NCBI GenBank assembly: GCA_041665505.1 | Contig: JBAYIR010000004.1 | Location: forward strand, 6,797-70,796 | Direction of reading: 5' to 3' | DNA: 64,000 bases | Source: Patescibacteria group bacterium | GTDB lineage: Bacteria; Patescibacteriota; Patescibacteriia; UBA1558; GWA2-36-10 | Shown here: piece after piece, positions 1,412-55,892 of the stretch | Numbering within the stretch: the stretch's first letter is position 1 | Layout of the letters: each line of letters opens with the position of its first letter | Notes under the pieces: generated by a model | Told to the model about the DNA's origin: nothing | Databases searched by the model: none | What the model saw: the letters and a program-made list of their open reading frames with translations, nothing else | Translations under genes and position numbers: made by a program

Positions 1412-4321
1412 ATGGTAGATTTTAAGGAAAAAGAAAAAGAAATACTGGATTTTTGGGAGAAAAATAAGATTTTTCAAAAATCAATAGATAAAAATGCTCC
1501 CCAAGGAGACTATCTTTTTTATGATGGCCCGCCTTTTGCCACTGGCACGCCTCACTATGGTCATTTGGTTGGTTCTGTTATGAAAGATGTAGTACCTAGA
1601 TATTGGACTATGAAGGGTTATAGAGTAGAGAGAAAATGGGGTTGGGATGTGCATGGTCTGCCGATTGAAAATATTGTGGAAAAAGAGCTCGGCTTTGCTA
1701 CCAAAAAAGATATAGAAAAATACGGCATTGATAAATTCAATGAAAGTTGTCGTAGTCGGGTCATGGAATATGCTGATGCTTGGAAAGGTACTATTCGTCG
1801 TCTGGGTCGCTGGGTAGATATGGAAAATGACTACAAGACCATGGATTTAAACTATATGGAGACTATTTGGTGGGTCTTCAAAGAACTCTGGAACAAGGGT
1901 CTTATATATGAGGACTACCGCTCCATGCATATTTGCCCTAGATGTGAAACTACTCTGTCACAATCAGAAGTAACTGAAGGTTATAAAGATATTAAAGATT
2001 TGTCCGTCACGGCTAAATTTGAGCTTATTGATGAGCCAAATACATTTGTATTGGCTTGGACTACTACTCCTTGGACATTGATAGGCAATGTGGCTTTAGC
2101 AGTGGGCAAAGATATTGATTATGTAAAAGTAGAAGTAGAAGATTCAAAATATATTATAGCCAAAGAGTTAATAAAAAATTATCAAAAAGAGCTAGGAGAT
2201 AATCCAAAAATTATAGAGGAATTCAAAGGTCAAGATTTACTTGGTAAAAAAGTAAAACCTTTATTTGATTATTACTATAATGATAAAAATTTAGCTAATA
2301 GAGAAAGAGGCTGGCAAATATACGCTGGTGATTTTGTCACCACTGAAGAAGGAACAGGTGTGGTTCATATGGCGCCAGCTTTTGGTGAAGATGATATGAA
2401 ATTGGGTAAGGAAAATAATTTACCTTTTATCCAACACGTAGCTATGGATGGTTCTATCAATACTGAAGCCACTGATTTTGCAGGACTCAATGTCAAACCA
2501 AAAGATGATCACACTACTACTGATGTAGCTATTATAAAATATCTAGCGGCTAAGGGCTTACTTTTTGCTAAAGAAAAATATGAGCATAGCTATCCACATT
2601 GTTGGCGTTGTGAAACACCGCTCTTAAATTATGCTACCTCATCTTGGTTTGTAAATGTCACCAAGATAAAACCGGAGCTACTTAAAAACGCCAAACATAT
2701 AAATTGGGTACCAAACCATATCAAAGACGGCCGTTTTGGTAAATGGCTAGAAGGAGCTCGTGATTGGTCAATATCCAGACAAAGATTTTGGGGTTCAGTT
2801 ATACCAATTTGGGTTTGTGATAAATGTGGAGAAAAAAAAGTAGTGGGCTCAGTGGATGAATTATATGATCTCAGTGGTGAGAAAGTAACTGATCTGCACA
2901 AGCATGTAGTAGATAAAATAAGTTTTGCTTGTTCTTGTAGCGGCACCATGACTCGTATCCCTGATGTTTTGGATTGTTGGTTTGAGTCAGGCTCAATGCC
3001 TTATGCTCAATCACATTATCCATTTGAAGCTAAAAAAGATTTTGAAAAAAAATTCCCAGCCAAGTTTATTGCTGAAGGGGCTGATCAAACTAGAGCTTGG
3101 TTTTATTATCTACACGTCATAGCTGGTGGTATCAAAGATAGTCATGCTTTTGAAAATTGTATAGTAAATGGCATTGTACTGGCCGAAGATGGTAAGAAGA
3201 TGGCTAAGAGATTAAAAAATTATCCAGAACCAGATTTGATAATGGAGCAATATGGAGCTGATGCCTTGAGAATGTATCTATTATCTTCACCAGTAATGAT
3301 GGCCGAAGATTTCAATTTTACTGAAAAAGATTTACAAACTACCTATCGTCGTTTTACTGGCATCTTGCAAAATGTTTTGAATTTTTATTTGATGTTTTCG
3401 GGGGAGAAAAAATTATCTGGAGCTTTGCCCAAAAAAGTAGACAACGATCTTGATAAATGGATTATTAGTAAACTGGTTAGTCTGCAGCACGAAGTAGCTA
3501 GTGAAATGGAAGCTTATAATCTAGTCAAAGCTAGTCGTCCAATATTTGATTTTGTAGATGATCTTTCTACTTGGTATGTCAGACGCTCTCGCGACAGATT
3601 CAAAGACGGAGATAATCAGGCTATTACTACTTTGGCTTTTATCTTAAAAGAACTATCAAAAATAATTGCTCCTTTTGCTCCGATGACCGCGGAAGCAATT
3701 TATATGGAATTTGAAAATAACCAAGAATCAGTTCATTTGGAAAAGTGGAAAGTATTGGAGAAAAGATTGATTGATAGCAAAATTTTTAATCAGATGGATG
3801 TTATTAAGCAAGTTGCTGAGAGGGCACATGCTCTAAGAGCCAAATCTGGTATGAAAGTTAGACAACCATTAGCCACTTTACAGATTACTTTGGGTAAAGA
3901 TATAAAATTGGAAGAAAATTATAGTGAAATATTAAAGGATGAATTAAATGTTGAAAACATTGCCATTGTAAATAAATTAAATGAATCAGCTGGCTGGATA
4001 GTTGATGATACAGGTTTTGCTTTGGCAAAAATTTCTTTGGATACCAATCTGACAGACGAGCTTAAAGATAGAGGTGTAATCAGAGAACTGATTAGATTTA
4101 TCAACGCTATGAGAAAAGAGGCTGGTCTCAAACCAAGTGACAGTCCAGTAGAAACTTATAATACTAAGTCTGATTATTTAAAATCCGTAATTGTTAAATA
4201 TAAAGCTGAATTGATGACTGGTACTTCAGCTGGAGATTTGCTAGAAGTAGAGGAAAATCCCAAGATTAATAATACAGTCAAAGTAAACGAAGCAGAAGTT
4301 ACTTTAGGATTAAAATTGTAA
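1412..4321 (+). CDS. ileS: isoleucyl-tRNA synthetase, type 2 (eukaryote/archaeal-like)
   Basis: HIGH-region PPFATGTPHYGHL; KMSKS-region KMAKRLKNYPEPD typical of IleRS2; N-terminus EILDFWEKNKIF; 969 aa class I synthetase. Confidence 0.85.
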   Translation: MVDFKEKEKEILDFWEKNKIFQKSIDKNAPQGDYLFYDGPPFATGTPHYGHLVGSVMKDVVPRYWTMKGYRVERKWGWDVHGLPIENIVEKELGFATKKDIEKYGIDKFNESCRSRVMEYADAWKGTIRRLGRWVDMENDYKTMDLNYMETIWWVFKELWNKGLIYEDYRSMHICPRCETTLSQSEVTEGYKDIKDLSVTAKFELIDEPNTFVLAWTTTPWTLIGNVALAVGKDIDYVKVEVEDSKYIIAKELIKNYQKELGDNPKIIEEFKGQDLLGKKVKPLFDYYYNDKNLANRERGWQIYAGDFVTTEEGTGVVHMAPAFGEDDMKLGKENNLPFIQHVAMDGSINTEATDFAGLNVKPKDDHTTTDVAIIKYLAAKGLLFAKEKYEHSYPHCWRCETPLLNYATSSWFVNVTKIKPELLKNAKHINWVPNHIKDGRFGKWLEGARDWSISRQRFWGSVIPIWVCDKCGEKKVVGSVDELYDLSGEKVTDLHKHVVDKISFACSCSGTMTRIPDVLDCWFESGSMPYAQSHYPFEAKKDFEKKFPAKFIAEGADQTRAWFYYLHVIAGGIKDSHAFENCIVNGIVLAEDGKKMAKRLKNYPEPDLIMEQYGADALRMYLLSSPVMMAEDFNFTEKDLQTTYRRFTGILQNVLNFYLMFSGEKKLSGALPKKVDNDLDKWIISKLVSLQHEVASEMEAYNLVKASRPIFDFVDDLSTWYVRRSRDRFKDGDNQAITTLAFILKELSKIIAPFAPMTAEAIYMEFENNQESVHLEKWKVLEKRLIDSKIFNQMDVIKQVAERAHALRAKSGMKVRQPLATLQITLGKDIKLEENYSEILKDELNVENIAIVNKLNESAGWIVDDTGFALAKISLDTNLTDELKDRGVIRELIRFINAMRKEAGLKPSDSPVETYNTKSDYLKSVIVKYKAELMTGTSAGDLLEVEENPKINNTVKVNEAEVTLGLKL

Positions 4322-4325
4322 GCCC

Positions 4326-5024
4326 ATGGCTTTTAAGACCGAAGCATTTGTACTGCGCTCTAGGCCTTTTAGAGAGGCTGATAGAATTTATGATCTATTT
4401 ACTCCTCAAGAAGGTGTGCTTTCAGTAGTGCTTCGTTCCGCTGCCAAATCGCAGAGTAAATTAGCCGGTCATCTCATGCCTTTTTATAAAGTCAAAGTAA
4501 TGATTGGTCGTGGTAAGATGGATCATATGGCTGGAGCGTCAATTTTGGAGACCTACAGTAATTTACATAAAGACCTAAAGAGTATGTCACTGGCCTCTTC
4601 AGTAATAGAATTATTTTTGAGTGACAAGTCGATGGGGCAAAAATTTGTGGAATTTTCTTTGTTGGAGCACATTTTTACTATTTTGAATCATCAAGGTATT
4701 ACGATGAATAAAAAAATGATGTTAGTGCGAGCTTTCTTATGGAAGTATTTGTCGGTAGCTGGTTGGCAACCACATTTTGAGTCAAGACAAAATTCTGATA
4801 GTGATGGTATAATGTATATGGAACATGATCATAGCCGAGCAGTACCCATCAGTGGAGAGTTATTTGATTTTTTGCAGTTTATTATCCAATCCGATTGGCC
4901 ACAACTCATAAATTTATCTGTTGATAGTCGGCTCAACAAAGAATGGCTTAGGATTTCAAGAATATATTATCAATCAATATTTGAACAAGCTTCTAAATCT
5001 TTAAAACTATTTACCTATGGCTAA
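4326..5024 (+). CDS. recO: DNA repair protein RecO
   Basis: N-terminus TEAFVLRSRPFREADRIYDLFT..G.LS..LRSAAKSQSKL matches the RecO family pattern. Confidence 0.65.
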   Translation: MAFKTEAFVLRSRPFREADRIYDLFTPQEGVLSVVLRSAAKSQSKLAGHLMPFYKVKVMIGRGKMDHMAGASILETYSNLHKDLKSMSLASSVIELFLSDKSMGQKFVEFSLLEHIFTILNHQGITMNKKMMLVRAFLWKYLSVAGWQPHFESRQNSDSDGIMYMEHDHSRAVPISGELFDFLQFIIQSDWPQLINLSVDSRLNKEWLRISRIYYQSIFEQASKSLKLFTYG

Positions 5025-6855
5025 AATAAAAAAAAGAGAGTTGGATTCAGCTAAAAGAGCTCCAATTAGAAAACAAAATTACGAAGCACCATCTTTGGCT
5101 AAAAAAGAAAGGGAAGTGCCAAAAGAATATCAAACTTTTCAAAAAGCCCCCAAAGGCAAAGGCTCTTGTTTGTGGTTTTTATTTTTACTTTTTGTAGCTA
5201 CCGTAGCTGGATTTTGGTATTTCTCCAAACAAAGTAAGGAGACCATAGAAAATAGTATAAAATTATCTATTGAGGGTCCTCAAGAAATAATTTCAGGCGA
5301 TCAAGCTACTTATAAAATAACTTATGAAAATATAGACCTAGTCACTATGCAGCAGTTGGAACTAGCAGTACGCTGGCCCAATGGATTTTACTTTGATGAG
5401 TCTAACGTAGAAGCTGTCGATGAAAATACTACTACCTGGTTGTTGCCAGATTTAGCTCCTGGTCAAAAGGCTTCTTTGGAGATTAAAGGACAATTAGTTG
5501 GTCAAAAAGATGAAGAGCTGACAACTTCTTTTTCCTTGTCTTATAAACCAGAAAATTTTAATTCAGATTTTAAAGTCAAAGATAGTATCAATACAAAAAT
5601 ATCTGATGCCAAAATTGAACTTAGTGTTGAAACTGTTGATAAAACCTTGGTGGCTACTAATCAGGAAATGAAAGTTAATTTTACAAATTTAACAGAAGAA
5701 AATTTAACAGAACTTTATATTGATATTTTATATCCTGATGATTTTGAAATAACTCAAAAGACTGATGATACAGCCTTAGTAAACCCAGGAGAAGAAGAAT
5801 TTGCAGTAGATTTTGTCAAAGAAGGAGATTATTTCAAATTAAATCTGGATGCTAAGCAAAGTAAGACCATGTTGATTAATGGATTTTTTACAGTTGATAG
5901 TAAAGCCGAGCAATTATTGGTAGCTGAAATTGGTAATATGGCTGATGGAAAATTTCGTCGATTGGCCAGAGTAGAAAAAAATATTATAGTTATCAATCCA
6001 AAATTTGATATGGATTTTACTATCAATGGCCAAAAGGGTGATCAATCTATAAATTGGGGAGATACATTAGAATACCAATTAAAAGTGACCAATAGTAGTC
6101 AGGAAGCTATATCAGACGCAGTAATTATAGCTACTATAGATAGTTTGGCCCTTGATTGGAATAGTTTGGATACAGTTGGAAATTATAATGAAGGTAAAAT
6201 TACTTGGACCAAAAATGAAAATACCGATTTGAGTAGTTGGCCAGCTGGAGAAGCTAGAACATTCACTTGGAAAGTAAATGTAGTTAAAGATCCTCAACCA
6301 GATCGGATGGTAGAAAATATTATTGAAATAAAGATAGCTGGCCTAGAAGCTTGGCAGCAAGTTAGTTCTCCTTTAGTGTTAACTATTGGTGAAAGTCTTA
6401 GCTTTAATAATGGAGTATATTGGGATTTGGGTGGTCGAAGAGTAGGCTCTGGTCTATTACCACCTCAGGTCAATGAAAGTACAGAGTATTTGGTAGTTTG
6501 GTCTTTACCTCAGGCTACTGGTGCTTTTGATCAGGTGACTGTCAGCACCAATTTACCACCCCAAGTAGATTTTATTTCGGAAATGGATATTCAAGAAGGA
6601 ACTTTGGAGTTTGATTTAGAGGGGCGTAGTTTAGTTTGGTCTATGGAAAATTTTTCGGATATTAATCTGCCCACCACAGCTTCTTTTGTAGTCAGACTTA
6701 CTCCTGGTCAGGAAAATATTGGGCAAGCTATGACTATACTTAATACCACCACAGTGAAAGCTAGCGGTGTAGAAGATGTAGTGGTGCGTTCTAAAATTAT
6801 AAAAACTTCTGATGTCATGTCAGATAGTAGCGAGCCTATTGGTATTGTAGAATAA
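5017..6855 (+). CDS. large hypothetical N-terminally membrane-anchored extracellular protein (repeat/beta-rich)
   Basis: Single N-terminal TM (CLWFLFLLFVATVAGFWYF) then 550 aa Thr/Asn/Val-rich; start overlaps the recO stop; no family recognised. Confidence 0.35.
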   Translation: MAKIKKRELDSAKRAPIRKQNYEAPSLAKKEREVPKEYQTFQKAPKGKGSCLWFLFLLFVATVAGFWYFSKQSKETIENSIKLSIEGPQEIISGDQATYKITYENIDLVTMQQLELAVRWPNGFYFDESNVEAVDENTTTWLLPDLAPGQKASLEIKGQLVGQKDEELTTSFSLSYKPENFNSDFKVKDSINTKISDAKIELSVETVDKTLVATNQEMKVNFTNLTEENLTELYIDILYPDDFEITQKTDDTALVNPGEEEFAVDFVKEGDYFKLNLDAKQSKTMLINGFFTVDSKAEQLLVAEIGNMADGKFRRLARVEKNIIVINPKFDMDFTINGQKGDQSINWGDTLEYQLKVTNSSQEAISDAVIIATIDSLALDWNSLDTVGNYNEGKITWTKNENTDLSSWPAGEARTFTWKVNVVKDPQPDRMVENIIEIKIAGLEAWQQVSSPLVLTIGESLSFNNGVYWDLGGRRVGSGLLPPQVNESTEYLVVWSLPQATGAFDQVTVSTNLPPQVDFISEMDIQEGTLEFDLEGRSLVWSMENFSDINLPTTASFVVRLTPGQENIGQAMTILNTTTVKASGVEDVVVRSKIIKTSDVMSDSSEPIGIVE

Positions 6856-6857
6856 TT

Positions 6858-8000
6858 ATGTTTAGTCTAAAGCAAAAATCAAAAAAATCTAAAGCTAGAT
6901 TAGGGGTACTAAAGACTGCTAGAGGAGAAATTAGTACTCCTTTTTTTATGCCTATTGCTACCAAAGCGGCTATTAAATCTTTAACAGCTCAAGAGGTAAA
7001 AGATTTGGGTTTTGAAATTATACTTTCCAATACTTATCACAATCTGCTTCGACCTGGTTTAGAGGTGATTAAAAAGTTTGGTGGTTTGCACAAGTTTATG
7101 AATACCGACTTGCCGATTTTGACGGACAGCGGTGGTTATCAAGTTTTTTCTTTGGCTAAATTTCGAAAGATTATAAATAATAATATTGAATTTCAATCGC
7201 ACATTGATGGTTCACGTCATATTTTAAATCCAAAAAAAGTGATTGATATTCAAGTAGCCCTAGGTAGTGATATTATGATGGTCCTTGATGAATGTGTCGG
7301 ACTACCGACTAGCCGAGCCAAAGCTCTAGAGGCTTTAGAACGAACTACTACCTGGGCACAGATAGCACTTGATTATAAAAATAAATTAAATCAAAAATCA
7401 AGCCAGATAAAAAAACAATTAATTTTTGGTATTGTGCAAGGAGCTGATTTTAAAGACTTGCGTCTGCGCTCTGCTCAAGAATTGTTAGTAATAGATAGTA
7501 ATTTTTCCGCCAAAGGCGGACCAGCCTCTGGCTGGGATGGCTATGCGGTCGGGGGTTTAGCAGTAGGCGAGTCAACTAAGACTATGTATAAGGTTTTAGA
7601 TTATACCGTGCCAGTTTTGCCAGAAAACAAAGCTCGCTATCTAATGGGAGTAGGTTATCCAGAAAATATTATAGAAGCAGTCAAGCGCGGTATTGATATG
7701 TTTGACTGTGTTATTCCCACTCGGGAAGCTCGGCACGGCAAGTTGTATTTATGGAATGGTCAGCCAGATGTCACTAAAAAGAATTTTTATAAAACCATAA
7801 ATATCAATAATGCTAAATTTGTCAAAGATAGCAGCTCAATTAATAATAGTAATCTGAAAAATTATTCTAAAGCTTATTTGCATCATCTATTTAAAACTCA
7901 AGAGCCGCTAGCTCTAAGTTTGGCTACTTTAAATAATTTATATTTTTATGCTAGTTTAATGACCAACATTAGATTGGCAGTCAAGAAAAATAAATTATAA
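6858..8000 (+). CDS. tgt: queuine tRNA-ribosyltransferase
   Basis: ARLGVLKTARGEISTPFFMPIATKAA..., LPILTDSGGYQVFSL, Zn-site region CVIPTREARHG. Confidence 0.85.
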   Translation: MFSLKQKSKKSKARLGVLKTARGEISTPFFMPIATKAAIKSLTAQEVKDLGFEIILSNTYHNLLRPGLEVIKKFGGLHKFMNTDLPILTDSGGYQVFSLAKFRKIINNNIEFQSHIDGSRHILNPKKVIDIQVALGSDIMMVLDECVGLPTSRAKALEALERTTTWAQIALDYKNKLNQKSSQIKKQLIFGIVQGADFKDLRLRSAQELLVIDSNFSAKGGPASGWDGYAVGGLAVGESTKTMYKVLDYTVPVLPENKARYLMGVGYPENIIEAVKRGIDMFDCVIPTREARHGKLYLWNGQPDVTKKNFYKTININNAKFVKDSSSINNSNLKNYSKAYLHHLFKTQEPLALSLATLNNLYFYASLMTNIRLAVKKNKL

Positions 8001-8002
8001 TA

Positions 8003-8875
8003 ATGAAAAATGGGAGAGGCTTTACTTTAATAGAAATAATCATGGCTGTAGGGATTATAGCTCTTTTGGCCGCTATTTCTTTTACAGCTATTAACCCCAA
8101 TAGAAGAATAGGTCAAGCTAACGATGCTTTGAGAGAGGCTGCTCTAGCTGGTGTTGGTAAAGCTTTGGAACTTTATGTATCTGATCATGCTAGTTTACCT
8201 TCAGGTTTTATGACCGCTAACATAAATATTGGGCATAAAGTAGTGCTTTGTTCATCCGCTGCTACACTTAGCTGTGATGGTCAAACTAGAGCCTGTCTAG
8301 TAGTAGATGATACAGATTTTCTAACTACTTATTTAGGAGGAGATTTACCAGTTGATCCAGCCAAAAACAATACTACTGATACAGGCTATTATATTACTAG
8401 AATCAGTGGTGATGCTATATCATTTGGAGCTTGCGATGCTTATCAAAGTGCTAATATACAAATAGCTACACAGGTAGCTTTAGCTCCATATATTGTCACT
8501 TGCGGTGATGGTGATATTGGAGGAGCTGAGGTCTGTGATGATGGTAACACCACCACTGAAACTCAAATTTGTAATAATGATATTTTAGAAACAGGTAACC
8601 ACTGTAATGCAGATTGTAGTCAGGAAATAGTTTTGACTGAAACTTGTGATGATGGTCCTGAAAGCTGTGGCGATGGAGCAAAACAAAGTGGTACTTTTTG
8701 TAATGCTACTTGTAATGGTAATTATACAGTGAGTGAAGTCTGTGATTATACAGGATTTGCTTGTAGTGAAGCTCCTATTGCTCCTCATACTGGTGCTGTA
8801 GGTTGCCCTAGCGCTCCTTTTTGTAATGCAGATTGTAGTGCTTGTGTAAAAACATGTCCAGCCCCTCCAGCATAG
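8003..8875 (+). CDS. type IV pilin-like protein with C-terminal cysteine-rich (Myxococcus-type CGDG...CDDGN) repeat domain
   Basis: Class III signal peptide / prepilin motif MKNGRG|FTLIEIIMAVGIIALLAA; C-terminus has CGDGDIGGAEVCDDGNTTTE and 20+ Cys. Confidence 0.7.
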   Translation: MKNGRGFTLIEIIMAVGIIALLAAISFTAINPNRRIGQANDALREAALAGVGKALELYVSDHASLPSGFMTANINIGHKVVLCSSAATLSCDGQTRACLVVDDTDFLTTYLGGDLPVDPAKNNTTDTGYYITRISGDAISFGACDAYQSANIQIATQVALAPYIVTCGDGDIGGAEVCDDGNTTTETQICNNDILETGNHCNADCSQEIVLTETCDDGPESCGDGAKQSGTFCNATCNGNYTVSEVCDYTGFACSEAPIAPHTGAVGCPSAPFCNADCSACVKTCPAPPA

Positions 8876-22536: not shown

Positions 22537-23577
22537 ATGGAATATTTAAACACAATATTAATAGTAGTAGCTTTTGCAATCATTATTTGGTTGATGATAA
22601 AAAATAATCAACCAAAAGAAGTCAAAGATGATAAAACAGCCGTGTTGTTGCAACAGTTAAATGATTTGAAAAATCAACTAGGTGAAAAAATTGATAATAC
22701 TACTAGGCATTCTTCCAAGATGCTCCAAGATCAATTTATAGAAACTAGCCGTATTTCCAAAGAAGTGACAGAAAAATTATTGAAGTTGGAAGAAACCAAT
22801 AAACAAGTAGTAGGTTTTACTGACCAATTACAAAATTTGGAAAAAGTTTTGACCAATTCCAAAACCAGAGGCAATCTAGGAGAGGCCAGTTTGGAATTAA
22901 TATTGTCAAATATTTTGCCGCCACAAAGTTATGAAATGCAATACCATTTTAAAAATGGTGAGGCAGTAGATGCGGTGGTTAAAATAAAAGACAAAGTTTT
23001 GCCAGTAGACGCTAAATTTTCTTTGGAAAATTATCGTCGAATCATTGGTGAAAATGATAAAGATAAAAAAGCCACTTTAGAAAAAGAATTTAAAAATGAT
23101 TTGAAAAAGAGGATTGATGAAACATCAAAGTATATCAGACCAAATGAAAATACACTGGATTTTGCTTTTATGTTTATTCCAGCTGAAGGGATTTATTATG
23201 ATTTACTTATCAATGAAGTCGGGGCAGTCAAAGTAAATACTAGGAGTTTGATAGATTATGCCTTTAATGAAAAAAAAGTAATTATTGTGTCACCAACCAC
23301 TTTTGCCGCTTATCTGCAGACAGTACTACAAGGTCTCAAGGCTTTACAAATTGAAGAATCAGCTAAAGAGATTAGAAAGAATGTTGAAATGCTGCAAAAG
23401 CATTTATTGGCCTATGGTGATTATCATAAAAAATTGGGCAATCAACTCTCTACTCTAGCCAACACTTACAATATTTCCAATAAAGAGTTTAATAAGATTG
23501 ATAAGGATGTGCTAAAAATCAGCGGAAAATCAGGAGAGTTTGAGTTGGAAGATGTAGAAAAACCAAGATTAGAATAA
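22537..23577 (+). CDS. rmuC: DNA recombination protein RmuC (start chosen at MEYLNTIL...; the ORF track starts earlier at 22492)
   Basis: N-terminal TM, long coiled coil, C-terminal FMFIPAEGIYYDLL...VIIVSPTTFAAYL typical of RmuC. Confidence 0.65.
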   Translation: MEYLNTILIVVAFAIIIWLMIKNNQPKEVKDDKTAVLLQQLNDLKNQLGEKIDNTTRHSSKMLQDQFIETSRISKEVTEKLLKLEETNKQVVGFTDQLQNLEKVLTNSKTRGNLGEASLELILSNILPPQSYEMQYHFKNGEAVDAVVKIKDKVLPVDAKFSLENYRRIIGENDKDKKATLEKEFKNDLKKRIDETSKYIRPNENTLDFAFMFIPAEGIYYDLLINEVGAVKVNTRSLIDYAFNEKKVIIVSPTTFAAYLQTVLQGLKALQIEESAKEIRKNVEMLQKHLLAYGDYHKKLGNQLSTLANTYNISNKEFNKIDKDVLKISGKSGEFELEDVEKPRLE

Positions 23578-23607
23578 TTATATTTTTTTAATAGCAAATT
23601 AAATAAA

Positions 23608-23631
23608 CCGTCCTCAAGTGGCGGTTTTTTT
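23608..23631 (+). terminator. rho-independent terminator of rmuC (ccgtc ctcaagt ggcgg + T7)
   Basis: 5-bp stem (one G-U) followed by ttttttt. Confidence 0.4.
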
Positions 23632-23677
23632 GGGACGGCGGGATTGCCTGGTGGCAATCCCGCCGTCATGCTCTGTG

Positions 23678-24061
23678 CTACGCGTGGCAGAATTGAGCTG
23701 CCACCAGCCGACCCAGGCCATCACTGGCCCAGTTGATGCTGTGGGTTTCCCATTGCCATTGGAAGCCCCTCCGCATTACCAGATCATACATCATTGGGCT
23801 GGCTACTACCGCCACCGGATTGATGTTTAGTGGCCATTCATCACCTTCGCTATCTCCAGCAAATATGAGAGTAGCAATGCCGAGCAGTGTGCCCTTCGGC
23901 AAGTACTGGTTGACGCCACGCCAGGTGGCTCTTCCGTCATCCATTTGGAAGATAGCGATATCAAAGGGATAAATATTGTCCCTTGCGGTGTAAGTAGAAG
24001 TGATGTCTTCTTCCATTTGGAACCAGGGCAGCTGATTGATCTGGATATTCTGGGTGTTCAT
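23678..24061 (-). CDS. hypothetical protein encoded in GC-rich island A (start at second Met, preceded by GGAGGT SD)
   Basis: 127-aa ORF MNTQNIQINQLPWF...; GGAGG 5 nt upstream of the ATG; GC content far above the backbone; no family recognised. Confidence 0.4.
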   Translation of the reverse strand: MNTQNIQINQLPWFQMEEDITSTYTARDNIYPFDIAIFQMDDGRATWRGVNQYLPKGTLLGIATLIFAGDSEGDEWPLNINPVAVVASPMMYDLVMRRGFQWQWETHSINWASDGLGRLVAAQFCHA

Positions 24062-24355
24062 GACAACCTCCATCAGTTATCGCACTGATTGGGCGTGACA
24101 GGGTTGAACTGTCAGGGGGTGGATGCTGCTCGTAGCAAATTCAATGAGCAGCACATTAGTTTCCATTAGTTGAAAAATACTGTGCTACCCATTGATATTT
24201 AATGTGAAAGAGCTAGATTAATATAGAATTATAGCATATTTTGTTTATTTTGTCAATGTTTAGTAGTATATAGTAGCTAGTATAATATTAAAAAAGTATT
24301 GACTTTTTCAAGTTTAGCGGTTATAATGTAGCCGCTTTTTGTTTATTATAAATTT

Positions 24356-24700
24356 ATGCCAGTAGTCAAAAATGACAATAAAAACAAGGCTAATAATGAG
24401 TGGCTAAGACAAGGAATGATGATGTTTGCCGAAAGTACCGGCTGGATCGCTTTCCCAGTCATAGGAGCTCTGTTTTTAGGTCAATGGCTAGATGAAAGAC
24501 AAGGCACAGGGCAGTTATATTTTTTAAGTATTACAGCTCTAGCTTTTATACTTTCTTCTGTGGGTATAGGCATGACAGGCGTAAAGTATATGAATAGAAT
24601 TGAAAAAGATGAAGCTGGGAAGAAAAATAATAAATCAAATAGCTTAGACAAAACCACACAGGAGAAAAAACAAGAAAATGAGCCAAGAAACGATAAATAG
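24356..24700 (+). CDS. AtpZ/AtpI-like small membrane protein preceding the ATP synthase operon
   Basis: Position immediately upstream of atpB; two TM helices and a Lys-rich tail, as in ATP-synthase protein I families. Confidence 0.4.
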   Translation: MPVVKNDNKNKANNEWLRQGMMMFAESTGWIAFPVIGALFLGQWLDERQGTGQLYFLSITALAFILSSVGIGMTGVKYMNRIEKDEAGKKNNKSNSLDKTTQEKKQENEPRNDK

Positions 24701-25580
24701 CAATCAAAACAATATAGAAGATACTTCGCGCATAGTTGAAGAAATTTTGGGTGAAGACTTAAATCAGGAAGCTGGCGCTCATACAGCTGAAGGAGCTGAG
24801 CATGAGGAGCACGAGCATACTTTATTTGCCGAAACAGTTTTTCAGGTTGGTGATTTTCCAATCACCAATTCACTGCTGACATCTTGGGTAGCAGTTTTTT
24901 TAATTATTATTTTGTCATTGGTCATTCGAGCTAAAAATAGTCGCATCCCATCAGTTTTCCAAAGTTTTATGGAAATAATTATTGATGGCGCACTGGGTAT
25001 GATGGATTTAGTGACCAATGATAGAGCTAAAAGTAAAAAAGTATTTCCAGTTATATTTTCAATTTTTCTTTTTGTGCTTATCAACAACTGGTTGGGGTTG
25101 TTACCGGGTTTAGGCTCCATTACTTATAATGGAGTAGCCTTACTAAGAGGGGGTACAGCTGATTTAAATACCACATTAGCTTTAGGGTTGTTTTCCGTAG
25201 TATCGGCCAATATTTTTGGTATGCTGGTAGTCGGTGGTTGGAATTATTTTAATAAATTTGTAAACATAAAAGCATTAATAGAAATACCTGGTAAAATTAG
25301 GCACGAACCAACCATTGTTTTGGTTAATCCTATAACTTTTTTTGTAGGATTAATTGAGATAGTGTCAGAAGTGGCCAAAGTAGCTTCACTATCATTTAGG
25401 TTGTTTGGTAATATTTTTGCTGGGGAAGTATTGATTGCTTCTATTTCAGCTTTAGTGGCTTATGGTGTGCCGCTACCATTTATGTTTTTAGAAGTAATTG
25501 TCGGAATTATTCAGGCCTTGATATTTTCCATTCTGACTTTGGTTTATTATACTATTGCTTCAGTTGAGCATGAACATTAA
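24678..25580 (+). CDS. atpB: F-type ATP synthase Fo subunit a
   Basis: Signature RLFGNIFAGEVL and polytopic membrane profile. Confidence 0.85.
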   Translation: MSQETINSNQNNIEDTSRIVEEILGEDLNQEAGAHTAEGAEHEEHEHTLFAETVFQVGDFPITNSLLTSWVAVFLIIILSLVIRAKNSRIPSVFQSFMEIIIDGALGMMDLVTNDRAKSKKVFPVIFSIFLFVLINNWLGLLPGLGSITYNGVALLRGGTADLNTTLALGLFSVVSANIFGMLVVGGWNYFNKFVNIKALIEIPGKIRHEPTIVLVNPITFFVGLIEIVSEVAKVASLSFRLFGNIFAGEVLIASISALVAYGVPLPFMFLEVIVGIIQALIFSILTLVYYTIASVEHEH

Positions 25581-26027
<447 letters not shown>

Positions 26028-26111
26028 TCGATTGTTTTGAGTGCTCTCTATATATGAGGGCACGACTAAGCAATTAATCTCTCGACATAGTTCGAGATAG
26101 AAGAAAATAAT

Positions 26112-26606
26112 ATGGAAATTTTAGAATTATTTGGAGTCGATTGGAAACTAATGACAGCTCAGCTAGTCAACTTTATTATAGTTATCTTGGTACTTTGGTT
26201 TTTTGCTTTAAAACCATTGACTAAGACTATGCAAAAGAGAAATGATGAAATTTTCAAAGGCTTATCAGACGCCAAAGCCGCTGAAGAAAGATTGCAGCAA
26301 GTTGAAAAGGAAGTCAAAGAAAAACTCATTGAGACTAAAGGTCTAGCCTCTGGTATTTTGGAAGAAGCTAAAAAACAATCAGAAAAAAGTAAACAAGAAA
26401 ACTTGACCAAAACCAAAGAAGAAGTCGCTAAATTGATTGTCAAAGCTAAAGAACAAATTGCTAGCGAAAAAGATAATATGTTAGTGGAAATCAAAGGTGA
26501 AGTATCTAGTATGGTAGTAGTGGCTTTGGAAAAGATTTTATCAGGTGGGCTGACAAAAGATATAGACAAAAAGTATATTGATAAAGCCTTAAAAGATTTA
26601 AAATAA
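26112..26606 (+). CDS. atpF: F-type ATP synthase Fo subunit b
   Basis: N-terminal TM then long charged helix; operon position. Confidence 0.7.
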   Translation: MEILELFGVDWKLMTAQLVNFIIVILVLWFFALKPLTKTMQKRNDEIFKGLSDAKAAEERLQQVEKEVKEKLIETKGLASGILEEAKKQSEKSKQENLTKTKEEVAKLIVKAKEQIASEKDNMLVEIKGEVSSMVVVALEKILSGGLTKDIDKKYIDKALKDLK

Positions 26607-27007
26607 TGAAAAAAGACCAAGCAAAAATTTTGGCTGCCGCTTTGTATAAAGCTAGTGGTGATAAAAAAGGCAAAGAATTAGATAAAGTGATTGCCAATTT
26701 TTCGGCTTACCTCAGTCAGCACCGTTTGGTGCCTATGATTCCTAATATATTAGGGCAGTTGGAAAATATTCATTTTTTAAAAGAAGGTATCATAGCTACC
26801 AAGATAACTAGTCGTGAAGAACTAGCTCAGGCGGAAATAAAAAAGATTTCTGATTTGATAAAAGCTAAAACCAAAAAAGAAGTAGTAGTTAAAACAGAAA
26901 TAGATAAAGAACTTATTGGTGGGGTAGTAGTAAAATATAATGACAAAATTATAGATATGTCCATCAAGCATCAATTAAACAATTTAGCAAAACAATTAAG
27001 CAATTAA
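26606..27007 (+). CDS. atpH: F-type ATP synthase subunit delta (short)
   Basis: Operon position between b and alpha; OSCP-like C-terminal [20 protein letters not shown]. Confidence 0.6.
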
Positions 27008-27011
27008 TAAT

Positions 27012-28544
27012 ATGTCTTACGATCATTTAGTAAAAAGTTTGCAAAAACAACTGGAAAATTGGCAATCAGATGTCAAAGAAGAAACAGCTGGTGAAGTTAT
27101 TGAAGTAGGTGACGGTATCGCCAAAGTATCTGGTCTATCAGATGTCATGGCTTCTGAGATGCTTGAATTTGAGACCAAAGCCGGAGATAAAATCTATGGT
27201 GTGGTTTTGAACTTAGAAGAATTTGCCGTTGGGGCTATTATTTTGGGTGAATATGGAGCCTTAAAAGAGGGCGACAAAGTAAAAAGAACCAAGCGTATTT
27301 TGGAAGTACCAGTTGGAGAAGCTGTGATTGGCCGAGTAGTAAATGCTTTAGGTCAACCAGTTGATGGTAAAGGTAATATAAAATCCAATGAGTTCTATCC
27401 AGTAGAAAAAATTGCTCCTGGAGTTATTACTCGTCAGTCAGTCTTTCAGCCACTAGAAACTGGTATCAAAGTAATTGATGCTATTATCCCTATTGGTAAA
27501 GGCCAACGTGAGCTTATTATTGGTGATCGTCAAACTGGTAAAACGGCTTTAGCTATTGATGCTATTATCAATCAAAAAGGCAAAGATGTTATTTGTATTT
27601 ATGTGGCTATTGGTCAAAAAGAATCAAAAGTAGCTAGAATCGTAGCTAAATTAGAAGAGACTGGAGCAATGGATTACACCACAGTAGTTTTAGCTGGTGC
27701 TTCTGAATCAGCTGCTCTTTCCTATATTGCTCCTTATGCTGGATGTTCTATGGGAGAATACTTTATGGACAAAGGCAAAGATGTTTTAGTGATATATGAT
27801 GATTTATCAAAACACGCTGTAGCTTATCGTCAGATTTCATTGCTACTTAAAAGACCACCAGGACGTGAAGCCTATCCCGGTGACGTTTTCTATGTGCATT
27901 CTAGATTATTGGAGCGAGCTGCTAAGATGAGTGATGAACTAGGTGGTGGATCACTAACAGCCCTTCCTATTATTGAAACTCAAGCTGGTGATATTTCAGC
28001 CTATATTCCTACCAATGTGATTTCTATTACTGATGGTCAGATTTTCTTGGAAACAGATTTGTTTTACAAAGGTATCAGACCAGCTCTATCTACTGGTTTA
28101 TCAGTTTCTCGTGTCGGTAGTGCCGCTCAGAAAAAAGCTATGAAAAAAGTAGCTGGTAAATTGAAAATGGATTTGGCTCAATATAGAGAGTTAGAGGCCT
28201 TTGCTCAATTTGGTAGTGATTTGGATGAAGCCACCAAGCAACAGCTTGATCGTGGGGCTAGAGTGACCGAGATTTTGAAGCAAGGTCAATTTAAACCACT
28301 TTTACAAAGCAAACAGATATCTATAATTTATGCTGCTGCCAATGGTCATCTAGATAAAGTGCCTGTAGCCAATTTAGCTGCTTTTGAACAAAAATTATTT
28401 AGTAAAATGGAAGCGGAAGGCAAAGACGTTTTAGATAATATTGAAAAAACTGGTTTACTATCCGAAGCGGATGAACAAAAATTAAAAAATATAATTAATG
28501 ATTTGGTAGAGTTAGAAGAAAAAGTCGGAGAAGACAAAAAATAA
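27012..28544 (+). CDS. atpA: F-type ATP synthase subunit alpha
   Basis: Walker [14 protein letters not shown]; 510 aa. Confidence 0.9.
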
Positions 28545-39233: not shown

Positions 39234-39379
39234 AAATTTTATATATTGACTATTTGGCTAAGGTATGATACAATTTTCCTTCATTATAGAATGTGCTATT
39301 AGAAGCTCAGTTAAAATAAGATGTAATAAATTACCAATTATTTTATCTGGGCTGCTAGTCAGCTCAATTAGTTCAATTC

Positions 39380-39925
39380 ATGACAGGACTGTCTTCTACA
39401 GGAGGTTGGCTCTTGAATAAGTGTTACGATGCCACTGGCGCCCCGTGCATGGATGGAGATTATTTTCCGCTTTTTCATGCGAAAGTAATCTCCATGTGTG
39501 GTCGGCTTGTTGACTTACTCCCTCAACCTGGGGGTGCCAAAACCCTCAGAACAGCCAATCTCTCGGCTCATGAGTTTGCCGGCAGATTCGTCAGCGTTTC
39601 TGTCGCCAAGCATGGTATCAGAACTATCGTCATTGGCACCCACCTTCAATGTGCCGCCTACGAGAAGTTTGGGCTTTCTTTGTCCGAAGAAGAAGCACTC
39701 CAGCGCCAGCATATTGAGAGAGCAGTTCGCTTTCTTAATGATTACGTCCCGATGGGGATCCAACACTACCTCAAGGAGGAAAAACTTCCCGAGCATGAAG
39801 TGCAGAACTTGGAGACCGTTTTGGAGAGCGGTATAATCATCCAAGCTCTGCTCATCAAGCCGTACGATATGTCGCGGCGCATCAAGGAACCTTCTGAAGA
39901 GTGTTTTGTGGAGCAAGTGCTCTGA
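39380..39925 (+). CDS. hypothetical protein encoded in GC-rich island B (alternative TTG start at 39413 preceded by AGGAGG with a 7-nt spacer)
   Basis: 170-181 aa ORF; GC content far above the backbone; canonical SD; followed by its own terminator; no family recognised. Confidence 0.4.
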   Translation: MTGLSSTGGWLLNKCYDATGAPCMDGDYFPLFHAKVISMCGRLVDLLPQPGGAKTLRTANLSAHEFAGRFVSVSVAKHGIRTIVIGTHLQCAAYEKFGLSLSEEEALQRQHIERAVRFLNDYVPMGIQHYLKEEKLPEHEVQNLETVLESGIIIQALLIKPYDMSRRIKEPSEECFVEQVL

Positions 39926-40010
39926 CCTACAATGTCCTTTTCATTTTTGTTGCCACCGCCCTTATCACTGGTGGCCCAGTTCTATACTTCTGCCCAAGCG
40001 CGGGCAGGGG

Positions 40011-40047
40011 ACTCTCGTCTTTAGAGGGCAGACGAGAGTTTTTTTTA
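40011..40047 (+). terminator. rho-independent terminator after the island B gene
   Basis: actctcgtc tttagagggca gacgagagt + ttttttttt (perfect 9-bp stem + T9); preceded by a second hairpin ctgcccaagcgcgggcag. Confidence 0.7.
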
Positions 40048-40080
40048 CTTTTGATTTTTCTATTGTTATGCGCTAAAATT

Positions 40081-43351: not shown

Positions 43352-43419
43352 GTTCATTTGAAATAAAATATTTTTAGAAGGAATTGTCCGTCACTGTTCA
43401 CTCGCACAGGGAGGTAGTC

Positions 43420-43707
43420 ATGTCTGAAGCCGTCGCTTACATCAAAATCATTGATACTCCTTCGGGAGAGGAAAACCTGCTCGCGCGTCATGAGTTTCAA
43501 GACTTGGTCTTACCGACCATCACCCCCAACGGTCAGCAAGTTGGCTACTACGTCGTCTATCTTTTGGATGCTCTGCCCATCATCAACGCGGAGCGCCCAC
43601 TCTTGGCCGAATGGCTCAAAGAGAAGTATCCAGAAGAGCAAGATCGCTCTAGTATCCGTCTCATTTTTGAGGCAACAGTCTGCCAAGAGACGATGGCCTT
43701 GGTATAG
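43420..43707 (+). CDS. hypothetical protein encoded in GC-rich island C (AGGGAGG SD 6 nt upstream)
   Basis: 95-aa ORF MSEAVAYIKIIDTPSGEENLL...; GC content far above the backbone; no family recognised. Confidence 0.4.
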   Translation: MSEAVAYIKIIDTPSGEENLLARHEFQDLVLPTITPNGQQVGYYVVYLLDALPIINAERPLLAEWLKEKYPEEQDRSSIRLIFEATVCQETMALV

Positions 43708-43735
43708 CAGATAGCAACGCTCGGCTGATGACAGT

Positions 43736-43766
43736 GGCGAAGCTGGGTTCAAACCCCAGCTTCGCC
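43736..43766 (+). terminator. 12-bp perfect hairpin (ggcgaagctggg ttcaaac cccagcttcgcc) after the island C gene
   Basis: Perfect inverted repeat; loop resembles a tRNA T-loop; weak downstream U-tract. Confidence 0.45.
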
Positions 43767-43815
43767 TCCTACTAAAAGTATTTTATTTGGAGCTTAATTT
43801 ACTTACTTACGAGGA

Positions 43816-44313
43816 GTGGGATTGATTTTTCAGGCTTTTTTTAGTATTATTCATATCAATGGATATCATAAAAGACTATCTGGCAGTAAAATAAATATTA
43901 ATTTTTTAAAGAGGGTGAATATCAGATCTTACAATATTATAATGTTACTAGCCACTGTTTTAGCGTGGCTGGGATTTTTTATAATTATCAACAGTTTTGA
44001 TCCTACCGAAGGCTCTTGGTTGGTTTATGCAATGTTTTATAGTATTTTATTTTTGAGCATTTTGGGTACGCTGTCTTTGATTGGTTTTTTGTCTCGTAGT
44101 ATTTTTAATCACAAAAAATCTAGGCCTAGACTTTTGGCTATTGAGTCTTTCCGTCAAGCCATTATATTTTCCGCTGTTTTAATCTTAGCTTTGATGCTTC
44201 AAGCCGGACGCATCTTGACTTGGTGGAATATGACTCTACTGATTGTCTTAGCCACGGTATTAGAATTTGTGATATTAGTTTTTCGTCAAAATGAAGAAGA
44301 TATAAAAAAGTAA
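43816..44313 (+). CDS. hypothetical membrane protein (4 TM)
   Basis: ORF with hydrophobic helices; no family recognised. Confidence 0.3.
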   Translation: MGLIFQAFFSIIHINGYHKRLSGSKININFLKRVNIRSYNIIMLLATVLAWLGFFIIINSFDPTEGSWLVYAMFYSILFLSILGTLSLIGFLSRSIFNHKKSRPRLLAIESFRQAIIFSAVLILALMLQAGRILTWWNMTLLIVLATVLEFVILVFRQNEEDIKK

Positions 44314-53679: not shown

Positions 53680-53738
53680 GGGAGCTCTGGCTAGTCGGCC
53701 GAGCGTTTGAACCTCGTAATAATAAATAATATGGCAAA
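53680..53738 (+). promoter_or_regulatory. 59-bp leader element, copy 1 (identical copy before rplA), includes the rplK start codon
   Basis: gggagctctggctagtcggccgagcgtttgaacctcgtaataataaataatatggcaaa is repeated exactly at 54198..54256. Confidence 0.5.
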
Positions 53739-54156
53739 GAAAATCAAACAAATGGTTAAGTTGCAACTCCAAGCTGGTAAAGCTACTCCAGCTCCTCCAG
53801 TAGGAACTGCGCTTGGACCACATGGCTTAGACATTCAATCTTTTTGTGTACAATTTAATGAAGCCACCAAAGATCGTATGGGTGAAGTAGTACCTATAGA
53901 TTTGGCAATTTATGAAGACAGAACTTTTTCTTTTGTCTTAAAAACTGCCCCAGCTTCTGATATGATTAAGAAAAAACTTAATCTAAAAAAAGGTTCTGGT
54001 AGTCCACTGCAACAAAAAATTGCTACTCTAACTAAAGCACAATTGACTGAAATTGCTTTGGCTAAAATGCCGGATTTAAATACTAAGGATGTTGAAAAAG
54101 CCAAACTTATAATTGCTGGTACGGCTCGTCAAATGGGAGTAAAGATAGAAGAATAA
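53731..54156 (+). CDS. rplK: 50S ribosomal protein L11
   Basis: MAKKIKQMVKLQLQAGKATPAPPVGTALGPHGL. Confidence 0.85.
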   Translation: MAKKIKQMVKLQLQAGKATPAPPVGTALGPHGLDIQSFCVQFNEATKDRMGEVVPIDLAIYEDRTFSFVLKTAPASDMIKKKLNLKKGSGSPLQQKIATLTKAQLTEIALAKMPDLNTKDVEKAKLIIAGTARQMGVKIEE

Positions 54157-54197: not shown

Positions 54198-54256
54198 GGA
54201 GCTCTGGCTAGTCGGCCGAGCGTTTGAACCTCGTAATAATAAATAATATGGCAAAA
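54198..54256 (+). promoter_or_regulatory. 59-bp leader element, copy 2, includes the rplA start codon
   Basis: Exact repeat of 53680..53738. Confidence 0.5.
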
Positions 54257-54934
54257 ATAAGTAAGAGATTAAAAGAGGCTAAAGCCAAGATTGAAAGCAA
54301 AAAGGTTTATAGTATCGAAGAGGCTATCAAGTTGGTCAAGGAAACTAGCGCAGTAAAATTTGATGCTTCTGTAGAAGTGCACGCCAAATTGGGTATTGAT
54401 CCCAAAAAAGGTGAGCAAATTGTCAGAGCTTCTGTGGTCTTGCCAAATGGTACTGGTAAGACAGTCAGAGTAGCTGCTTTTGTACCAGAGAATCGGGTCA
54501 AAGAAGCTAAAGACGCTGGGGCTGATTTGGTAGGTGGCGAAGAATTGATTGCTGAAATCAAGAAAACATCTAAAACAGATTTTGATATTGCGGTTACTGT
54601 GCCAGAAATGATGCCTAAGTTAGCAGCTGTAGCCAAAGTATTAGGTCAAAAAGGTCTAATGCCTAACCCCAAGACTGGTACAATTAGTCCAGATTTAGCT
54701 AAAATGGTTGGTGAACTTAAAAAAGGTAAAGTATCTTATAAAAATGATATTACCGCTAATATTCATTTGAGTATTGGTAAAGTATCTTTTGATGATGCTA
54801 AATTGATTGAGAATTTTAAAACATTTTTAGACTCTCTAAAAAAATCTAAACCACCAACTGTCAAAGCCACTTATATTAGATCCTTATTTGTTTCTTCATC
54901 TATGGGGCCTAGTATCAAGGTAAGTATAAATTAA
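54248..54934 (+). CDS. rplA: 50S ribosomal protein L1
   Basis: MAKISKRLKEAKAKIESKKVYSIEEAIKLVKE... L1 family. Confidence 0.85.
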   Translation: MAKISKRLKEAKAKIESKKVYSIEEAIKLVKETSAVKFDASVEVHAKLGIDPKKGEQIVRASVVLPNGTGKTVRVAAFVPENRVKEAKDAGADLVGGEELIAEIKKTSKTDFDIAVTVPEMMPKLAAVAKVLGQKGLMPNPKTGTISPDLAKMVGELKKGKVSYKNDITANIHLSIGKVSFDDAKLIENFKTFLDSLKKSKPPTVKATYIRSLFVSSSMGPSIKVSIN

Positions 54935-55548: not shown

Positions 55549-55608
55549 TTTAGTTAAGTAAAGTATAGCATATAAAAAAAATATGTCAATATTTTTAAAA
55601 AAAGGAAA

Positions 55609-55633
55609 CCCGCCGCGTCAGACGCGGCGGGTT
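55609..55633 (-). terminator. rho-independent terminator of the island D two-gene unit (minus strand)
   Basis: acccgccgcg tcaga cgcggcgggt 10-bp stem followed on the minus strand by ttcctttttttaaaaa. Confidence 0.6.
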
Positions 55634-55658
55634 CAAACAGCGTGTCGTGGTCGATAGT

Positions 55659-55883: not shown

Positions 55884-55892
55884 GAAGACCTC

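Follow-up and report, generated by a model that had tools for sequence, protein, structure and literature searches.

The 64-kb window analysed here (the whole stretch of 64,000 nucleotides of contig JBAYIR010000004.1, Patescibacteria group bacterium) carries a short GC-rich segment between rmuC and the atp operon. This segment, designated island A, encodes a protein of 127 aa on its minus strand. Related genomes were compared at the same junction, and island A is likely to be a laterally acquired, self-contained monocistronic cassette of ~0.7 kb in a variable rmuC-atp slot, with a rare protein and a conserved leader. The parts of such a cassette would be a consensus promoter, a structured leader, a Shine-Dalgarno sequence (SD), the 127-aa open reading frame (ORF) and 3' hairpins (Table 1). 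The closest RmuC relatives, 76-88% identical, were from Komeilibacteria, Parcubacteria and Patescibacteria metagenome-assembled genomes, which would place the window in Candidatus Komeilibacteria of the Candidate Phyla Radiation (CPR, Patescibacteria). Members of this radiation are dependent on other cells and their genomes are tiny, and the gain and regulation of their accessory genes are poorly known. The literature found on Komeilibacteria and on SDs in Patescibacteria contained nothing bearing on this locus.

The mean GC content of the window was 0.351 with a standard deviation of 0.060 in 150-nt sliding windows. The GC content of island A, at 23563-24176, was 0.489 and its 100-nt windows peaked at 0.62, in agreement with the GC-rich island proposed earlier from the letters alone (the sequence-only reading); the interval given there, 23634-24135, corresponds to the GC-rich core only. 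The whole insert was bounded by comparison with empty sites and extends from about 23578 to about 24283, ~0.7 kb, thereby taking in the AT-rich promoter and a part of the leader as well. The GC contents at the first, second and third codon positions (GC1/2/3) of the island gene were 0.53, 0.41 and 0.60, respectively, whereas the GC3 of rmuC, atpB, atpI and other native genes was 0.26-0.33. This comparison with the flanking genes, which the sequence-only reading had proposed, indicates that codon usage, rather than amino-acid content, accounts for the GC excess. The native sequence restarts at about TTAAAAAAGTA-TTGACT, and the atp promoter is located at 24299-24327. The spacer at the right junction was the least conserved segment compared with a close strain (L002), with 14 of 26 positions identical. 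Both junctions were recovered in three independent assemblies, Logan SRR6484324 (100% identical), JGI 3300037810 (99.5% identical) and Logan SRR22387796 (a divergent allele), and island A is therefore not an assembly artefact or a chimera. No tRNAs and no Rfam families at gathering thresholds were found anywhere in the window, so a tRNA or Rfam explanation of the GC islands was rejected. Apart from each island's own hairpins, no DNA was common to island A and the other GC islands or the rest of the window.

In the list of ORFs the gene spans 23678-24073 on the minus strand and has 131 aa counted from the first ATG. The start at 24061 was preferred because GGAGG lies 5 nt upstream of it, the relatives start at the equivalent residue and an independent gene call also resulted in 127 aa; the alternative ATG in the same frame, at 24073, lacks an SD and itself overlaps GGAGG. 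The intact ORF of the sequence-only reading, with GGAGG 5 nt before its ATG, was thus confirmed at 24061-23678. Among the 52 long ORFs of the window, a 5-mer SD was detected at -20 to -4 in two, which equals the background of 2.7% at random positions. The upstream regions of the native genes were AT-rich and had no SD, while GGAGG was confined to the GC-rich islands. Since the native SD usage does not exceed the background, translation initiation in this genome is essentially SD-independent, and the sequence-only reading was correct that most native genes have none.

The dN/dS (ratio of non-synonymous to synonymous substitution rates) of the island gene against the allele of L002 was 0.26, therefore the ORF is under purifying selection and is a real protein gene. 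GC-rich intergenic regions in AT-rich genomes are often structured RNAs, and the structured leader might point in the same direction for island A as a whole, i.e. to a non-coding RNA with a chance ORF, or else to an assembly chimera. However, the ORF is conserved in frame, it has about ten homologues of equal length with common motifs as well as a confident structural model, and the three assemblies contradict a chimera. This explanation is refuted for the coding sequence and is scarcely credible otherwise.

The rmuC-atp junction was compared in 64 rmuC loci taken from GTDB species representatives. The atp operon lies downstream of rmuC, as in the window, in 26 of the 64 loci. The site was empty in nine of these (L003, L007, L008, L009, L012, L013, L014, L017, L025), with a gap of 74-172 bp, and in the shortest gaps the conserved atp promoter TTGACT-17-TATAAT-GTAGCCGC starts within 15-25 nt of the rmuC stop. 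The other 17 gaps were filled (386-1706 bp), ten of them with a segment of at least 0.50 GC. The ORFs in the filled gaps were unrelated to island A and to each other (Table 1). The orientation was the same as that of island A in six of the seven cargo genes examined, and several of them repeat its layout of a consensus promoter, a GGAGG-type SD and GC-rich terminator hairpins. The cargo of the L022 slot (7247-7519) was a homologue of the protein of another GC-rich island of the window, island B (30% identity, E 9e-8), hence one cargo family uses different slots. The rmuC-atp junction thus appears to be a slot for variable cargo.

No homologue of the island A protein was encoded in the 64 species-representative rmuC loci (tblastn); its carriers at this locus were only same-species contigs and one close strain, L002, with flanks about 93% identical. 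The closest relative outside this group, P0003 (L072), is 44% identical and belongs to a 1.03-Mb contig annotated at NCBI as 'Patescibacteria group bacterium'. The GC content of the P0003 gene is 54% in a 57%-GC genome, so it is compositionally at home there, in an unrelated genomic context. Horizontal acquisition of island A is supported by the empty sites, the restriction of the gene to same-species contigs and one strain, its foreign GC3, its SD in a non-SD genome and this relative at home in a 57%-GC genome. A native GC-rich gene, inherited vertically in Komeilibacteria with its GC content upheld by selection on the protein or mRNA, would fit the presence of the gene at the same place and with the same GC in L002, and the family GC3 of 0.54-0.64 irrespective of the GC content of the host contig. 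It is contradicted by the absence of the gene from all 64 loci, with nine clean empty sites and unrelated cargo in others, by an SD in a genome without SDs, and by the context of the closest outside relative in a GC-rich Patescibacteria genome. Vertical inheritance is thereby largely refuted and considered highly improbable; orthologous loci carrying the same gene, which the sequence-only reading named as contrary evidence, were not encountered among the 64. The 'recent' in its proposal of a recent horizontal acquisition holds only in a relative sense, as the cassette is common to two lineages whose flanks differ by a dS of 0.3-0.4.

The promoters of the window, L002, L006 and both copies of L010 were alike beyond their hexamers, TTGACAAAATA[A/G]..AAAATATGCTATAAT. 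The promoter of island A is accordingly shared with unrelated cargo, spacer included (TTGACAAAATAxxxAAAATATGCTATAAT), and the likeness ends just past the -10 box. Each of the two tandem cassettes of L010 has its own copy, and the empty sites do not have this divergent promoter. The shared promoter could be either resident at the slot or travelling with the cargo.

Horizontal-transfer hotspots, or genomic islets between conserved core genes, are a concept of comparative genomics, and the junction resembles them in its fixed core flanks, rmuC and the atp operon, its content differing between species, its atypical composition and the lack of a visible mobility gene. Three features of such islets were found: empty orthologous sites, deviant composition and codon usage, and different cargo in each lineage. 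In contrast to an ordinary hotspot, the units here are single genes, mostly in one orientation, each having a consensus promoter, an SD and a terminator; several of them share a homologous promoter, and the CPR host's own genes lack SDs. Island A can be described as an islet acquired in an ordinary way, of which the protein family and the RNA motif are both uncatalogued.

The perfect 15-bp stem-loop, which the sequence-only reading took to flank the island, was verified; it has no U-tract on the minus strand. A homologous stem-loop, ACGGCGGG...CCCGCCGU, with a U-tract, was detected downstream of the family gene in L075, L076 and L077. The hairpin consequently belongs to the gene and is not the end of a mobile element. 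The imperfect hairpin beyond it may act as a bidirectional terminator for rmuC (plus strand) and the island gene (minus strand), judging from its A-run and T-run. Neither 3' hairpin of island A was flagged by a scan for consensus terminators.

Insertion of a defined mobile element (an integron cassette, a fragment of a miniature inverted-repeat transposable element (MITE) or insertion sequence (IS), or a prophage remnant) by its own recombination chemistry was considered as well. Such an element could account for the discrete insert, the strong 3' hairpin, a 14-nt AT-rich inverted match joining the insert ends (23580-23593 / 24286-24299), and the two 60-nt hairpin elements that bracket the family gene in L072. 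However, one arm of the inverted match, the right one, belongs to the native sequence and also occurs at the empty sites, and no convincing target-site duplication or direct duplication was found at the insert ends, so the search for one suggested in the sequence-only reading gave a negative result. Island A had no repeat in common with other parts of the window, the other islands included, no phage homologues were found, and no integrase or transposase was seen next to the family gene in any of its nine contexts. An IS or MITE was rejected, since the only end-to-end inverted match has a native right arm and there is neither a direct duplication nor a second copy in the window. Integron cassettes are likewise small foreign single-ORF units, each with a 3' hairpin, swapped at one site beside a resident-looking promoter. 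In contrast to them, the 3' hairpin of island A is a perfect 15-bp GC stem, GACGGCGGGATTGCC/GGCAATCCCGCCGTC, without bulges or attC cores (RYYYAAC / GTTRRRY), and island A has its own 12/12 sigma-70 promoter, whereas integron ORFs are promoterless and driven from Pc. The arrays at the junction comprise at most two units (L010), and IntI or attI were not seen, although the ORFs of the window were not scanned exhaustively for them. Altogether, a defined mobile element is very unlikely. A diversity-generating retroelement target was also rejected: the region occurs only once in the window, and the allele differences are spread across all codon positions, although the ORFs of the window were not scanned for a reverse transcriptase.

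The leader between the promoter and the coding sequence is ~160 nt long and its predicted fold has an energy of -49 kcal/mol (z = -4.1). It comprises two structured parts. The upstream part forms a long hairpin that was found in the Komeilibacteria copies alone and is missing in L075 and L077; one G-to-A change in L002 converts a G-U pair to A-U, and the 3' arm has an alternative pairing with 24122-24128 (GCUGCUC/GAGCAGC). The downstream part is a conserved two-hairpin motif of 68 nt in the 5' untranslated region (UTR), which abuts the SD. It was defined in an alignment (A6) of seven leaders, those of the window, L002, L072, L078, L075/L076, L077 and L071, representing five independent lineages whose proteins are only ~30-45% identical. 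The consensus order is A-CCCC, hairpin P1 (5-7 bp), CACGC with 3-4 further nt, hairpin P2 (5-6 bp) and the SD. The P1 loops were UUYAACC, AUUAUCC or CUCAGC, and the P2 loops GCGWUA or ACGAAA.

The stems vary between the lineages yet remain paired, with UGACAG/CUGUCA, UACGG/CCGUA, UGCCGG/CCGGCA and GGCGG/CCGCC in P1 and AUCAGU/ACUGAU, ACCAGA/UCUGGU, ACAGU/ACUGU, CUAGU/ACUAG and CUCAA/UUGAG in P2. In A6, 90.4% of the cells were paired, compared with 28-46% when the partner columns were slid by 1-3 positions. Compensatory changes on both sides were detected in 9 of the 12 pairs, the observed values were reached in none of 500 shuffles, and P1 and P2 were independently recovered by RNAalifold. A covariance model built from A6 (R1) gave 77 bits with the window and matched only upstream of family genes in the 819 kb of the window and the loci. 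With a degenerate leader pattern, 19 matches were obtained in JGI metagenome contigs, two of which were real by the covariance model and belonged to the known P0014 lineage; no matches were obtained in viral contigs. None of 4227 Rfam families matched 24059-24125 even at E<=10. In the five lineages most of the pairs are compensated and the motif always ends at the SD, as expected of a structured cis-regulatory RNA. Because the stems are variable and the loops conserved, the leader would be an RNA-level element rather than a DNA operator.

According to thermodynamic folding, the SD of the window is mostly paired, with a probability of 0.24 of being unpaired (0.07-0.42 across the leaders). A closing helix, P0, formed by the SD with the segment 5' of ACCCC, was favoured in the window and L002, L078 and L071; it was weak in L075, and L077 and L072 lack it. 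The linker and the P2 loop (CGC with GCG; CGU with ACG in L072) were 100% paired, and this pairing would form an H-type pseudoknot, which suggests that the leader may adopt one in addition to its hairpins.

Compact size, conserved loops, covarying stems, an end at the SD, a predicted paired SD and a possible H-type pseudoknot are shared by the 68-nt element with the SD-occluding riboswitches and RNA thermometers (preQ1-I, SAM-II, ROSE/fourU). It differs from them in matching no Rfam family and in having only about five independent examples. Autoregulatory mRNA leaders, such as ribosomal-protein leaders and phage translational repressors, are similar in being tied to one gene family and inherited with it, but the island A protein does not have a recognisable RNA-binding fold by comparison with PDB and BFVD. 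A ligand-sensing riboswitch, with the leader sensing a metabolite or ion and the gene encoding a cognate small binding protein or enzyme, would agree with the conserved loop and linker nucleotides (ACCCC, AACC, CACGC, GCGWUA), the covarying stems and a motif directly on the SD, which is the typical layout of translational riboswitches, as well as with the strict association with one gene family. However, with so few representatives a binding pocket cannot be delineated, the motif matches no known class, the protein hints at no substrate, and the same data are also explained by an RNA thermometer or by the encoded protein regulating its own synthesis. The riboswitch is therefore regarded as unlikely. 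A type III toxin-antitoxin system (ToxIN-like) was rejected, as there are no tandem direct repeats in 23400-24500.

The 127-aa protein had no profile or sequence match in Pfam, PHROGs, NCBIfam, PADLOC or the PDB sequences, and no homologues were found by tblastn in phage records, plasmid records and IMG/VR. The absence of a recognisable family noted in the sequence-only reading is correct for these databases; nevertheless, a small uncatalogued family exists. A HMMER search over 1.84 billion cluster representatives resulted in nine small proteins of 116-129 aa, the window's own cluster included, and a word-indexed search added one further member, P0014, giving about ten clusters, each of one or two members. 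The multi-repeat proteins P0010-P0012 were discarded, as they match only the low-complexity N-terminus. The family is characterized by the motifs WRG..Q..P.G, F.GD.D, EWPL.I.P.A, W..H and GR..AAQF, with W47, R48, G49, Q52, P55 and W104 invariant across the alignment. Neither a signal peptide nor a hydrophobic segment was detected in the 127-aa protein. The AlphaFold2 model based on an 11-sequence alignment had a predicted local distance difference test score (pLDDT) of 86.6 and a predicted template modelling score (pTM) of 0.82, and consists mostly of beta structure with one helix; a two-sequence alignment gave a pLDDT of only 57.7. The protein is predicted to be cytoplasmic and mostly beta. 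No fold match for the model was found in PDB or BFVD.

P0003 is the only annotated Patescibacteria member; the others come from metagenome contigs. The contexts of the family members differ and no recurrent partner gene was found beside them; P0014 and P0007 are located between csrA and uvrA. The gene of P0005 (L078 2768-3142; Logan SRR24319150), between murJ and lepA, is itself a GC island, with a GC content of 0.53 in an AT-rich contig of 0.34. Its unit shares the layout of island A, i.e. the promoter (ATATGCTATAAT), the long leader, the RNA motif, the SD and the terminator; it is the transcription unit as a whole that moves and not the ORF alone. In L072, two 95%-identical 60-nt hairpin-forming copies (5837-5896, 6609-6668), 772 nt apart, bracket the P0003 gene, and further repeated elements lie upstream of the genes that follow (8691, 9901, 11140). 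These elements may be dispersed repeats or cassette boundaries.

The flanks of the window and L002 were 88-94% identical, with dS of 0.30-0.43 and dN of 0.006-0.07, and the flank proteins had amino-acid identities of 87-100%. The corresponding values of the island gene were considerably higher, dS 0.97 and dN 0.25, and the proteins were only 64% identical. The divergence is unevenly distributed: the promoter and leader were 92-93% identical, with about two differences in the GC-rich 105 nt of the leader, and the 3' UTR was 94% identical, compared with only 70% in the middle of the coding sequence. The differences comprise 42 synonymous and 62 non-synonymous changes. The GC3 values of the two alleles were 0.60 and 0.64, and elsewhere in the family 0.54-0.62. 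At a native equilibrium GC3 of ~0.28, a GC3 of 0.62 would fall to ~0.40 after half a synonymous substitution per site in each lineage, and holding it at 0.6 would demand an ancestor near 1.0. As GC3 has stayed at ~0.6 despite a dS of 0.97, the two alleles probably acquired most of their differences outside these AT-rich genomes, and at least one of them was probably imported by recombination via the conserved leader, the 3' end or the flanks. In a comparison over window 23419-28211, the same-species contig from JGI 3300037810 (L100) was 99.5% identical to the window over rmuC, the island and atpB and 95.9% over the rest of the atp operon, a mosaic that suggests recent recombination around the slot.

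The divergence of the gene bears also on a role as conflict-system cargo, i.e. a stand-alone anti-phage defence, anti-defence or toxin-like effector in a high-turnover hotspot, the translation of which the leader would silence until a trigger. Its patchy distribution as an orphan single-gene unit in a variable slot, an evolution far faster than that of the flanks (64% against 87-100% amino-acid identity) and the predicted sequestration of the SD are in favour of this role. On the other hand, there was no homologue in PADLOC, PHROGs, phages, plasmids or IMG/VR, there is no partner gene, and with the dN/dS of 0.26 there is no positive selection overall. A conflict function is possible on these grounds, though doubtful.

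The laterally acquired cassette thus remains the preferred account, and three steps of its working can be proposed, here in the order of falling confidence. The leader would gate the access of ribosomes to the SD in a riboswitch-like, thermosensor-like or autoregulatory manner. After DNA uptake, homologous or homology-facilitated recombination would bring in cargo and alleles, without a dedicated recombinase. The protein would be an accessory factor, perhaps in conflict with phages or other cells, or the effector of a ligand-sensing leader. Our best guess from the sequence is that the product of island A is a translationally gated accessory protein. According to a bolder version, the 68-nt leader would be a new class of SD-gating RNA, ligand-sensing or bound by the product and dedicated to a family of unseen fold, and the junction an integrase-free 'expression slot' which re-uses a resident divergent promoter for swapped foreign cargo and alleles; this version is speculative and is put forward with little confidence.

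Several observations weigh against the preferred account. Only five independent lineages provide the RNA motif, and four family members (L067, L070, L079, L080) do not have it upstream. A single compensatory event backs the pseudoknot, and of six lineages only four support P0. The sharing of the promoter could partly reflect near-consensus AT-rich promoters instead of homology. The family GC3 of 0.54-0.64 in contigs with GC contents of 0.37-0.60 could mean that synonymous sites are under selection. The entry of cargo is not explained by any recombinase, target-site duplication or further insertion signature.

If the cassette account is correct, the locus is a clean case, and one that can be dated, of a CPR genome receiving foreign single-gene units at a fixed slot, the units retaining an SD though the host's own genes do not use it, and it offers evidence for cargo alleles imported rather than evolved in place. 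The leader is a candidate cis-regulatory RNA of a new kind, its covariation being good considering how short it is, and the product is a small protein with a confident model, which belongs to a very rare family and has no fold relative in PDB or among viral structures. The biological importance of these features is not yet proven.

Table 1. Features of island A and cargo of the rmuC-atp slot in related loci. Coordinates refer to the window or, for cargo, to the respective locus.
Sequence	Feature	Coordinates	Strand	Basis or remark
Window	AT-rich left junction of insert	23578..23606	.	directly after rmuC stop codon 23575-23577; empty-site comparison
Window	imperfect hairpin between A-run and T-run (AAACCGTCCTCAAGTGGCGGTTTTTTT)	23607..23631	.	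by eye; conserved in L002
Window	perfect 15-bp GC-rich stem-loop	arms 23634-23648 / 23653-23667	-	100% complementary, 10 nt after stop codon
Window	coding sequence, 127 aa (MNTQNIQINQLPWF...AAQFCHA)	23678..24061	-	rare uncatalogued family of ~120-130 aa; homologues, dN/dS, model
Window	Shine-Dalgarno GGAGG	24067..24071	-	5 nt before ATG 24061
Window	conserved 68-nt two-hairpin 5'-UTR RNA motif, abutting SD	24059..24125	-	covariation, alignment A6
Window	motif part P2 hairpin, loop GCGAUA	24089-24072	-	then SD
Window	motif part P1 hairpin, loop UUCAACC	24114-24096	-	then linker CGCCCA
Window	motif part ACCCCC	24120-24115	-	5' of P1
Window	long hairpin, ~15+ bp, upstream part of leader	24139..24195	-	leader fold
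Window	sigma-70-type promoter TTGACA-17-TATAAT, extended -10 TG	24228..24256	-	12/12 match; divergent from atp promoter
Window	AT-rich right junction of insert	24257..24283	.	comparison with empty sites L003, L007, L008, L025
L004	cargo: 80-aa orphan			rmuC-atp slot
L006	cargo: alpha/beta hydrolase	gap 3821-4844		rmuC-atp slot
L010	cargo: two tandem paralogous orphans, 89 and 106 aa	gap 7068-8291		rmuC-atp slot
L016	cargo: 171-aa orphan			rmuC-atp slot
L027	cargo: 466-aa protein, Por_Secre_tail sorting domain (Bacteroidota-type)	gap 6963-8669		rmuC-atp slot
L059	cargo: 127-aa secreted orphan			rmuC-atp slot
L060	cargo: LysM protein, 61% GC	gap 5697-7144		rmuC-atp slot

Three other GC-rich islands were observed in the window. 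Island B (39373-40063) had a GC content of 49% and a GC3 of 0.54, and contains a plus-strand ORF at 39380-39925 with a long leader and an extended -10 promoter (TTGACT 39246-39251 / TACAAT 39269-39274). Its ORF matches the Pfam family PF20393 Pro_CA_2 with an E value of 3.7e-8. Island C (43369-43826) encodes a 95-aa orphan on the plus strand, from the ATG at 43420 to 43707, with a GC hairpin after the stop. Its SD is GGGAGG, 5 nt before the ATG (GGAGGTAGTCATG, compared with GGAGGTTGTCATG in island A), and the unit is bracketed by 22-nt inverted repeats at 43361-43382 / 43767-43788. Only two homologues of its protein, with identities of 93% and 63%, were found in 5.8 billion clusters, a pattern of divergent alleles as in island A.

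The fourth island (55558-56135, 51% GC) contains minus-strand ORFs at 56195-55893 (100 aa) and 55883-55659 (74 aa, arginine-rich), the second of which is preceded by GGAGG 5 nt before its ATG. No Pfam, PHROG, PADLOC or Rfam matches were found for this island. A hairpin at 55606-55633 with a T-run makes a perfect terminator, and the RNA fold of the island had a z of -4.4; a coding region and a structured RNA are both candidate readings. Apart from the islands, the neighbouring ORFs 53731-54156 and 54248-54934 have identical 22-nt upstream sequences (gaacctcgtaataataaataatATG), which suggests a local duplication or paralogous gene starts.

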